46,936 bases of DNA. Source: a virus. Location: the IMG/VR virus record IMGVR_UViG_3300028173_000017; one strand, 5' to 3'. The translations under genes were made by a program, and so were the position numbers. Of this stretch, positions 27,212 to 27,886 are shown in pieces (the first letter of the stretch is position 1; each line of letters starts with the position of its first letter). The notes under the pieces were generated by a model. It did no database searches, had not been told where the DNA came from, and worked only from the letters and a program-made list of their open reading frames with translations.

Positions 27212-27847
27212 TTTGGCCCATTTGATTCGGCCGCGGACATATTCATCACCCGGGCAATCTTTACAAAACTTATTTTGGGTGCCATTGTTCCACCAAAGTC
27301 TTCCAATGGTAGACAAACTTACTCTTTTGCGTGCAGCCGGCGTTCTTGCTTGCTTTTTCTTTGCTGCACTCATTTTTTGACGAGTAGCATCTGATATGGG
27401 TTCTCTTTGTAAGGCTCGTTCGCGCATTTTTTGTCGAGATTCAAGTGATCTAGTTCCACCTGTCAATGATTTGGCGATTTTCTTTCGTGTTTCAATAGAG
27501 ACAAGGTGACCTTTCAATGCGTTGCTAAGTTTCTTTCGTGTTTCAACAGAAGGGGAATATCCTTCACCGCCGAGACCACCTTGGCAAAGATTGTAACATA
27601 TTGAATCGTCGACCAACTCTTGCGGAACATACAAAGCCTCAGCAAGCAATGCTTCATTGCGGGTTTCATGTTGCGACATTATAACCTTAGCAAAGTTTTC
27701 CTTTCCATATTTTTTGATAGCTAATCCAATCGCAGAACCTGATCCCATGTATGAATCTGTATGAATATTTCCTTTGCAGGTTCTAACGCCGATATAAAAT
27801 CGCCCATTCAGCTTGTTAATAATACGATAAACGTAATAACTCTTTAT
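27188..27847 (-). CDS. GIY-YIG homing endonuclease with NUMOD3 repeats, lacking a canonical start codon
   Basis: in-frame (I)KSYYVYRIINKLNGRFYIGV lies upstream of the first ATG (27748) and aligns with I-TevI MKSGIYQI...VYVGS; no ATG/GTG/TTG between the motif and the upstream stop; ATA (27847-27845) occupies the Met position; convergent 24-nt overlap with the endolysin 3' end. Confidence 0.55.
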   Translation of the reverse strand: MKSYYVYRIINKLNGRFYIGVRTCKGNIHTDSYMGSGSAIGLAIKKYGKENFAKVIMSQHETRNEALLAEALYVPQELVDDSICYNLCQGGLGGEGYSPSVETRKKLSNALKGHLVSIETRKKIAKSLTGGTRSLESRQKMRERALQREPISDATRQKMSAAKKKQARTPAARKRVSLSTIGRLWWNNGTQNKFCKDCPGDEYVRGRIKWAKSLDKKPI

Positions 27848-27886
27848 ACATATAAATATCTTTGCGAATCAAATAACATCAGTTTT

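Follow-up and report, generated by a model that had tools for sequence, protein, structure and literature searches.

Can an endonuclease be made from a frame that keeps every conserved residue of its family but has no canonical start codon? This question is raised by a locus in the virus record IMGVR_UViG_3300028173_000017, analysed here as one stretch of 46,936 nucleotides (nt), which we refer to as the window. On its minus strand, overlapping the 3′ end of an endolysin gene, lies an open reading frame (ORF) for a Seg-like GIY-YIG/NUMOD3 protein, which we predict to be a free-standing homing endonuclease. This copy is probably translationally silent or nearly so, and would then have taken the first step of decay, because the frame has no canonical start, Shine–Dalgarno (SD) sequence, recognisable promoter or recoding signal. 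The original prediction had left a choice between initiation at a non-canonical ATA or ATT codon and a gene inactivated by an ATG-to-ATA mutation. That choice was broadly right, but the ATG-to-ATA change is only one of three routes by which the start may have been lost.

An endonuclease frame and its missing start

The frame holds 226 sense codons after an in-frame TGA at 27871-27869 and closes with a TAA at 27190-27188. Its first ATG on the minus strand lies at 27748-27746, and the same frame upstream of this codon reads FAKIFICIKSYYVYRIINKLNGRFYIGVRTCKGNIHTDSY-M, residue by residue F-A-K-I-F-I-C-I-K-S-Y-Y-V-Y-R-I-I-N-K-L-N-G-R-F-Y-I-G-V-R-T-C-K-G-N-I-H-T-D-S-Y-M. Our minus-strand reading confirmed what had been claimed of this interval: the first ATG lies downstream of the GIY-YIG motif, the frame upstream is open as far as the TGA, no ATG, GTG or TTG stands in frame between the two, and an ATA occupies 27847-27845. 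Further in-frame ATA codons lie upstream at 27853 and 27859. The bounding TGA had been placed correctly, but it was overlooked that this triplet is the antisense of an endolysin remnant. Overlooked as well was an out-of-frame ATG at 27851-27849, 4 nt upstream of ATA 27847 and one base out of the GIY frame. Skipping one base after ATG-TAT-AAA joins this ATG to the GIY frame as MYK-SYYVYRIINK, which appears equally plausible as a family N-terminus, and the protein supported by homology would begin at about 27851-27844.

The residues upstream of ATG 27748 belong to the protein and are not a chance translation, because the Pfam family PF19835 (SegE_GIY-YIG) is detected with them (30.6 bits, cut-off 25) but not without them, because two core strands of the predicted fold lie within them and because this fold matches a known catalytic domain. 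The AlphaFold model, built from a 21-sequence alignment, has a mean predicted local distance difference test (pLDDT) score of 84, with values of 94–98 over residues 1–90. Its core is arranged as β-β-α-β-α (β1 2–11, β2 17–25, α 38–47, β3 52–60, α 63–73), with β1 and β2 upstream of Met 27748. Among PDB structures, only the catalytic domain of I-TevI (1mk0) gave a meaningful match (probability 0.99, template modelling score 0.62, 99 columns); the PDB sequence search returned nothing significant, with one spurious resolvase match at E = 0.17. Annotated Seg-like and homing endonucleases were matched by tblastn at identities of up to 35%. The identity as a GIY-YIG homing endonuclease, proposed from the letters alone, is borne out by PF19835, the conserved columns, the fold and the 1mk0 match. 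The ORF of 186 amino acids (aa) that begins at ATG 27748 gives a Pfam match to NUMOD3 only, and Met 27748 itself, residue 34 in the model, occupies the position of the family motif Y-[ML]-G-S-G at which Met or Leu is conserved.

We aligned the endonuclease with 19 relatives and the second GIY-YIG gene of this phage. All invariant family columns (Y7, Y18, G20, K46, E70, N86 and G130) and all near-invariant columns (N11, N14, Y33, GSG 35–37, A43, YGK 47–49, F52, Y85 and GG 90–91) are kept. The GIY motif takes the form YVY, YIG is there together with the conserved Glu and Asn columns, and neither the NUMOD3 repeats nor the C-terminal WWNNG...CPG...RGR motif is damaged. Two residues after YIG an R replaces the usual H, as it does in the relatives P0012 and P0024. 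Neither a frameshift nor a stop interrupts the frame, every catalytic residue is retained, and the start signal is the sole visible lesion of the ORF.

Among the matches listed from IMG/VR and metagenomes we collected 160 family loci, corresponding to 120 non-redundant N-termini. A canonical in-frame start stands beside the motif in 117 of these (112 ATG, 3 GTG, 2 TTG), on which ground a family-wide non-canonical start was rejected. The statement that ATA occupies the position where homologs have Met is true of 9 of the 117, but the commonest Met position is one codon downstream of ATA 27847 (42 of 117); about one-fifth of relatives have their Met 4–10 codons upstream, and several have it at offset −1, where ATG 27851 lies. 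Of the three exceptions, one is cut by a contig end, one (L163) is an offset artefact and one (L173) is genuine. In the latter (Ga0208865_1003874) a stop directly precedes KQFYHYFIYK, and its close relatives L066 and L090 have an ATG 8 codons upstream.

One of three single events may account for the missing start in the window. ATG may have changed to ATA at 27845, one nucleotide may have been inserted just after ATG 27851 (removal of one A gives MYKSYYVYR), or an upstream Met may have been lost at the cassette junction 27857/27858. We make no choice among these routes because intermediate relatives were not found: a search of 5.8 billion clusters gave nothing between 42% and 99% identity, relatives in IMG/VR reached at most 55% over the catalytic domain, and a metagenome scan with the word KKYGKENF yielded no close copy among the matches listed. 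The DNA pattern with ATA, with ATG or with one A fewer was not found in IMG/VR.

The signals around the frame were compared with those of its neighbours. All 31 genes called between 18.9 and 37.6 kb lie on the plus strand and start with ATG, mostly with a GGAG/AGGA SD sequence 5–10 nt upstream, and the endonuclease ORF is antisense to every one of them. No SD sequence was found for ATG 27851, ATA 27847 or ATG 27748 (within 20 nt for the last), and a weak purine stretch, AAAGA, lies 8–9 nt upstream of AUG 27851. A consensus scan detected no σ70-like promoter upstream on the minus strand, the consensus used being one that may not be the host's. The leader contains no RNA structure, frameshift stimulator or hairpin that would sequester a ribosome-binding site (RBS), its predicted fold being no better than that of shuffled sequences (z = +1.35). 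At Rfam gathering thresholds, no group I intron or recoding element was detected in the window, only a transfer-messenger RNA (tmRNA) and three tRNAs.

The second GIY-YIG/NUMOD3 gene of the phage occupies the same kind of slot and serves as an internal control. Its neighbours are the 3′ end of gene 12967-13491 and a plus-strand promoter copy at 14225-14253, and it has a GGAG 6 nt before an ATG that stands three residues ahead of the GIY motif. The word GTTTACAC, common to both antisense endonuclease leaders, was considered as a signal and rejected, being the reverse complement of the −35 region of the plus-strand promoter.

Insertion and loss at the endolysin gene

The empty state of the locus is carried by two related contigs collinear with the window, L013 and L176, whose endolysins are 90% and 85% identical to that of the window. 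Segment 27171-27857 is missing from both, a presence/absence polymorphism at a fixed site between related phages. Their endolysin has the family-typical C-terminus ...AGGKLESLRIK-stop, after which come the promoter and a 102-aa gene; the empty-site sequence runs ...GGCGGAAAGCTTGA/ATCTTTGCGAATCAAATAA..., and the surrounding DNA contains ...AACTTTATGGCAGGCGGAAAGCTTGAATCTTTGCGAATCAAATAACATCAG.... The endolysin of the window closes with a tail that is homologous but aberrant, WMCGSGLDRLLIK-stop, where the family consensus is ...WMAGGQLxxLRIK. The cassette swaps in about 13 last endolysin codons and leaves a native remnant of 5 codons, whose antisense supplies the TGA at 27871-27869 and the immediate 5′ leader of the endonuclease. 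ATG 27851 and ATA 27847 lie 6 and 10 nt, respectively, from the 5′ edge of the cassette at 27857. At the other end of the cassette, the last 8 codons of the new tail and the last 8 of the endonuclease share 27188-27211, on opposite strands. In its tail the occupied allele has 48–65% nucleotide identity to the empty site, a divergence consistent with immunity to cleavage.

A third state is found in the sister lineage L177-L180, in which window sequence up to 27235 is joined to sequence from 27875 onward at a GACAT/AACAT microhomology. These contigs keep the aberrant tail together with the last 16 endonuclease codons (RGRIKWAKSLDKKPI-stop; R-G-R-I-K-W-A-K-S-L-D-K-K-P-I-stop). This state is a deletion derivative, because its boundary cuts through the endonuclease. 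A pre-insertion ancestor was rejected on the same ground and on the retention, within the 16 codons, of the family-conserved xGR of the CPGxEYVRGR motif. The flanks of L177-L180 are 83–86% identical to the window, and their endolysin differs by 25 substitutions, all within residues 16–215. Between the window and L177 identity is 100% over 27161-27235, 94% in the preceding 125 nt and about 83% in the rest of the endolysin. Because 27161-27235 is identical against this background of about 83%, the same cassette has been present in two diverged backgrounds and has been lost from one of them. We infer that the cassette was recently mobile, since its end is also present in another lineage with flanks that diverge by about 15%; general recombination, rather than homing, may have spread the shared cassette end.

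Beside the cassette, the plus-strand leader at 27917-27998, between the promoter −10 element and gene 28013, is unrelated in the window to the mutually similar leaders of L013 and L177, and is a second small replacement.

These states suggest a sequence of events. The cassette would have invaded the 3′ end of the endolysin gene, bringing its own last ~13 codons and stranding the native endolysin end just upstream of the endonuclease ORF. Loss of the start with the conserved residues intact would be the first step of decay in a cycle of invasion, fixation, decay and loss, in which L177-L180 would already have reached the loss step. Homing endonucleases are described by the Goddard–Burt cycle, in which invasion is followed by fixation, degeneration and loss. 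At this one locus we find a never-invaded state (L013, L176), an occupied, start-less state (the window) and a state deleted with a footprint (L177-L180), but degeneration is read here from the missing start signals alone. In this way a single locus of wild marine jumbo phages would display the life cycle of a homing endonuclease.

The layout of the cassette has a counterpart in fungal mitochondria, where mobile endonuclease ORFs with a foreign C-terminus were described in atp6 of Allomyces macrogynus and in atp6, atp9, cox2 and nad3 of Glomus (PMC3630166). As in those elements, a host-gene core is followed by an inserted, diverged C-terminus, an endonuclease ORF and a native remnant almost identical to that of element-free relatives (PMC3630166). 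The fungal ORFs point the same way as the host gene, often in phase with it, whereas the phage endonuclease is antisense, with its 8-codon overlap with the new tail. The phage cassette also has a much shorter duplicated segment (about 13 codons inserted, 5 in the remnant) and resides in a phage rather than an organelle. A cassette that brings its own replacement C-terminus for the host gene is therefore also found in a phage, in antisense.

Coordinates of the endonuclease frame, its candidate starts, the cassette and the second GIY-YIG gene in the window
Feature	Position	Strand	Basis
Seg-like GIY-YIG + NUMOD3 homing endonuclease open frame (predicted)	27188..27868	-	Frame reading, PF19835/NUMOD3 match, tblastn, family columns, fold
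In-frame ATA, candidate start of the original prediction	27845..27847	-	Aligned to Met of some homologs (offset 0); no SD upstream
Out-of-frame ATG 27851-27849 with 11-codon ORF MYKELLRLSYY, stop 27818-27816	27816..27851	-	Frame reading
Gene-caller start ATG, 186-aa product	27746..27748	-	ORF calls; alignment column; model; no SD within 20 nt
GH25 + PG_binding_1 endolysin, 280 aa, host gene of the insertion	26369..27211	+	Domain search
Inserted cassette, ~687 bp, versus ~20-23 bp in L013/L176	27171..27857	.	Collinear flanks with 76-87% nt identity; homology resumes at 27858
Replacement endolysin C-terminal tail W-M-C-G-S-G-L-D-R-L-L-I-K-stop	27170..27211	+	Family tail comparison
Native endolysin 3′ remnant (E)-S-L-R-I-K-stop, 19 nt, ATCTTTGCGAATCAAATAA	27858..27876	+	Identical to L013 and L176
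Segment deleted in L177-L180, 639 nt	27236..27874	.	Window[..27235] joined to window[27875..]
Promoter motif GTGTAAAC-N11-GTGGTATAAT (extended -10), pointing away from the endonuclease to gene 28013	27887..27915	+	One of 13 copies
Second GIY-YIG + NUMOD3 homing endonuclease (MKRHYIIYTYKD...NIFYVGQS)	13513-14178	-	Antisense

A silent copy weighed against expressed ones

Genomic context favours, but does not prove, inactivation over a purposeful ATA start, because the insertion is absent from relatives, the sister lineage carries a deletion footprint, SD sequence and promoter are missing, and canonical starts are found in 117 of 120 relatives and in the second gene of the phage. The ordinary explanation to which these observations point is a selfish endonuclease gene that is past fixation but not yet lost. 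Gene callers everywhere report the 186-aa NUMOD3 protein at this locus, which hides the complete, start-less GIY-YIG nuclease frame.

Several observations weigh against silence. The ORF has no other lesion, all of its invariant and near-invariant columns are kept and its fold is confidently predicted; decay would therefore have to be very recent, or the protein is still under selection. By our own estimate the start is a small target under neutral decay, receiving about 2% of inactivating changes, which leaves room for selected attenuation. Half of the free-standing endonucleases of phage T4 are functional without a recognisable RBS (PMC2988022). The missing σ70 consensus is compatible with transcription in the host of this uncultured phage, and the population is too nearly clonal to show purifying selection.

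The most novel alternative is an active endonuclease, which we consider unlikely: its missing start would be an evolved attenuator, passed by initiation at AUA 27847 or by a low-frequency +1 shift from AUG 27851. Few enzyme molecules per infection would then be made, enough for homing but sparing the phage off-target cuts and antisense interference with the endolysin, and start-codon identity or recoding, instead of RBS-sequestering hairpins or translational coupling, would then be shown for the first time to throttle a homing endonuclease. An active enzyme would also allow non-AUG or frameshift-limited expression of a selfish nuclease to be studied in a natural setting, and would be a candidate new site-specific endonuclease whose target could be read from the empty alleles.

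Where such a functional gene is taken to initiate at a near-cognate in-frame codon, either AUA 27847 or AUA 27853/27859, with a trace of complete endonuclease made from a weak start under selection as attenuator, it has a similarly small chance of being right. The intact conserved positions, the confident fold and the small size of the start as a first target of neutral decay fit this proposal, as does the alignment of ATA 27847 with the Met of some homologs. AUA initiation is measurable in E. coli, but AUA, AUU, AUC and CUG initiate at about 1–2% of AUG (0.02–3% across constructs), even with a good RBS, and the only confirmed non-canonical starts in that organism, in infC and pcnB, are both AUU (10.1101/063800). 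With no SD sequence to place the ribosome at AUA 27847, the expected yield would be 1–2% of an already weak site, and an out-of-frame AUG competes from 4 nt upstream. As a candidate start of the infC/pcnB type, the ATA coincides with the Met of 9 of 117 homologs and has no RBS, and no orthologs were found in which its conservation could be followed. Only one of about 120 other family members is start-less, which speaks against a family strategy, and the sister lineage L177-L180 has deleted the gene.

The Seg-type endonucleases of T4-like phages are the closest known systems, and the down-regulation of phage homing endonucleases fits an attenuated start. The SegA–G proteins combine, like the protein predicted here, an N-terminal GIY-YIG nuclease domain (PF19835) with NUMOD3 DNA-binding repeats, and their genes are likewise free-standing between phage genes, with presence/absence polymorphism and, here, no group I intron detected. 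The free-standing endonucleases of T4 are all negatively regulated, phage homing endonucleases in general being down-regulated at several levels and many lacking an RBS (PMC2988022), so that weak translation signals are shared with the window. Unlike the endonuclease of the window, the T4 seg and mob genes all have a canonical start, AUG throughout except for a predicted GUG in mobA (PMC2988022). The window gene also differs in being antisense to every neighbour and in overlapping the 3′ end of its host gene, and identity to characterised Seg proteins is low. I-TevI, encoded in the T4 td intron, has a catalytic domain (1mk0) on which the predicted N-terminal domain superposes, and the two have in common the strands that carry GIY and YIG, a basic residue behind YIG and the conserved Glu and Asn, but sequence identity is about 20% and the gene studied here is not intron-encoded. 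A hairpin that sequesters the RBS and a late promoter regulate I-TevI expression (PMC2988022); neither was found here.

Far less probable is that the 186-aa product from AUG 27748 is itself the real protein, a nuclease-dead NUMOD3 DNA-binding protein acting, for example, as a site-specific binder or repressor. AUG 27748 is the sole in-frame canonical start and is chosen by every gene caller, and the NUMOD3 repeats and the WWNNG...CPG...RGR motif lie intact within this product. I-TevI doubles as a DNA-binding autorepressor. Its operator is mentioned in the T4 literature (PMC2988022). Yet the initiating Met would be the conserved internal residue of Y-[ML]-G-S-G, the codon has no SD sequence, and according to the AlphaFold model the product loses two of the three core β-strands and is left with an unfoldable half-domain. 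Nor would anything then keep the 33 upstream codons open and fully conserved.

We give marginally less credence still to a start at AUG 27851 followed by a +1 shift in UAU-AAA-G, where the tRNA-Lys would move from AAA to AAG to produce M-Y-K-S-Y-Y-V-Y-R..., with the remaining ribosomes ending after 11 codons. AUG 27851 is the sole canonical start near the N-terminus, its offset is that of Met in several homologs, the AAAGA stretch precedes it and tRNA-Lys can re-pair from AAA to AAG. Neither a stimulatory structure nor an upstream SD-like stimulator accompanies the site, however, no recoding element was recognised by Rfam, and the codon after the shift site, GAG, is neither rare nor a stop. 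No other family member has this arrangement, and a pseudogene with a 1-nt insertion would have the identical sequence. Termination–reinitiation after the 11-codon ORF was rejected, the nearby in-frame codons being only AUU, AUU and CUG, all downstream of the GIY strand.

Hardly any weight remains for a sequencing or assembly error, in which the true sequence would read ATG at 27847 or lack one A of 27843-27845. One wrong base would suffice to hide a start, but no evidence for such an error was found, and it is refuted at consensus level because 12 contigs, assembled independently and differing in project, sample and assembler, match the window exactly.

Population and genomic surroundings

These 12 contigs, from ENA, JGI and Logan and with MEGAHIT- and SPAdes-style names, are 100% identical over the 260 nt of 27700-27960 and 99.8–100% identical over as much as 16.8 kb, which excludes the sequencing error restoring ATG that had been named as a refuting scenario. 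The exact 186-aa ORF occurs in 31 blocks of a public assembly collection, and a one-residue variant on three more contigs. Among about 15 billion proteins no version of the endonuclease of about 220 aa was found, the sole close cluster being the 186-aa ORF. The phage is one widespread, near-clonal lineage. The sole polymorphism in the endonuclease ORF is a non-synonymous A-to-V change at 27366, and most other differences between contigs fall in two short recombination patches.

The larger patch distinguishes contig L004, whose 33 substitutions relative to the window all lie in a 97-nt endolysin tract (26815-26911) that encodes the L013-type peptide AAIEGKVHCGDL.... This tract is a gene-conversion patch between lineages, about 260–360 nt from the endonuclease junction. 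The smaller patch comprises 4 single-nucleotide polymorphisms at 29539-29591 in L006 and L010.

The promoter next to the cassette follows a motif, GTGTAA(A/G)N-N11-RTGRTATAAT, for which we found 13 copies with at most 2 mismatches against 0 expected, all 13 on the plus strand. In addition to the copies already given, the motif occurs at 37325-37353 and 43991-44019 (+), and it is conserved in L013, L176 and L177. The endolysin is flanked by two endonuclease genes, since an HNH + NUMOD3 homing-endonuclease-like gene at 25480-26340 (+) lies directly upstream of it. This gene is absent from L013, where three other ORFs are found, including one for a 131-aa GGQ-motif protein resembling release factors and ArfB (L013 3567-3962). 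In L177-L180 the NUDIX gene is missing too.

The source is an uncultured marine jumbo phage; it is assigned to the jumbo phages because an identical endolysin occurs on a contig of 318 kb. No annotated phage was matched by megablast, and the NAMPT protein has at most 55% identity to that of any cultured phage. The full-length tmRNA (24626-24985, +; Rfam RF00023, 92 bits) encodes the ARAGORN-predicted tag peptide ANDNSEYSYAQAA, and the three tRNA genes form a cluster at 5194-5423 (+) with specificities Gly-GCC, Arg-TCG and Thr-GGT. An 870-aa protein encoded at 5552-8164 (+) carries major-vault-protein domains (MVP_shoulder, 75.5 bits; Vault_3, 35.4 bits), which are unusual in a phage. Auxiliary metabolic and RNA genes lie at 15123-18778, 22016-23032 and 31837-33588 (+), encoding an IMPDH/GMP-reductase-like protein, an NMNAT–NUDIX fusion and NAMPT as a NAD salvage pair, an adenylosuccinate synthetase and a 583-aa nucleotidyltransferase of the PolyA_pol/CCA-adding type.

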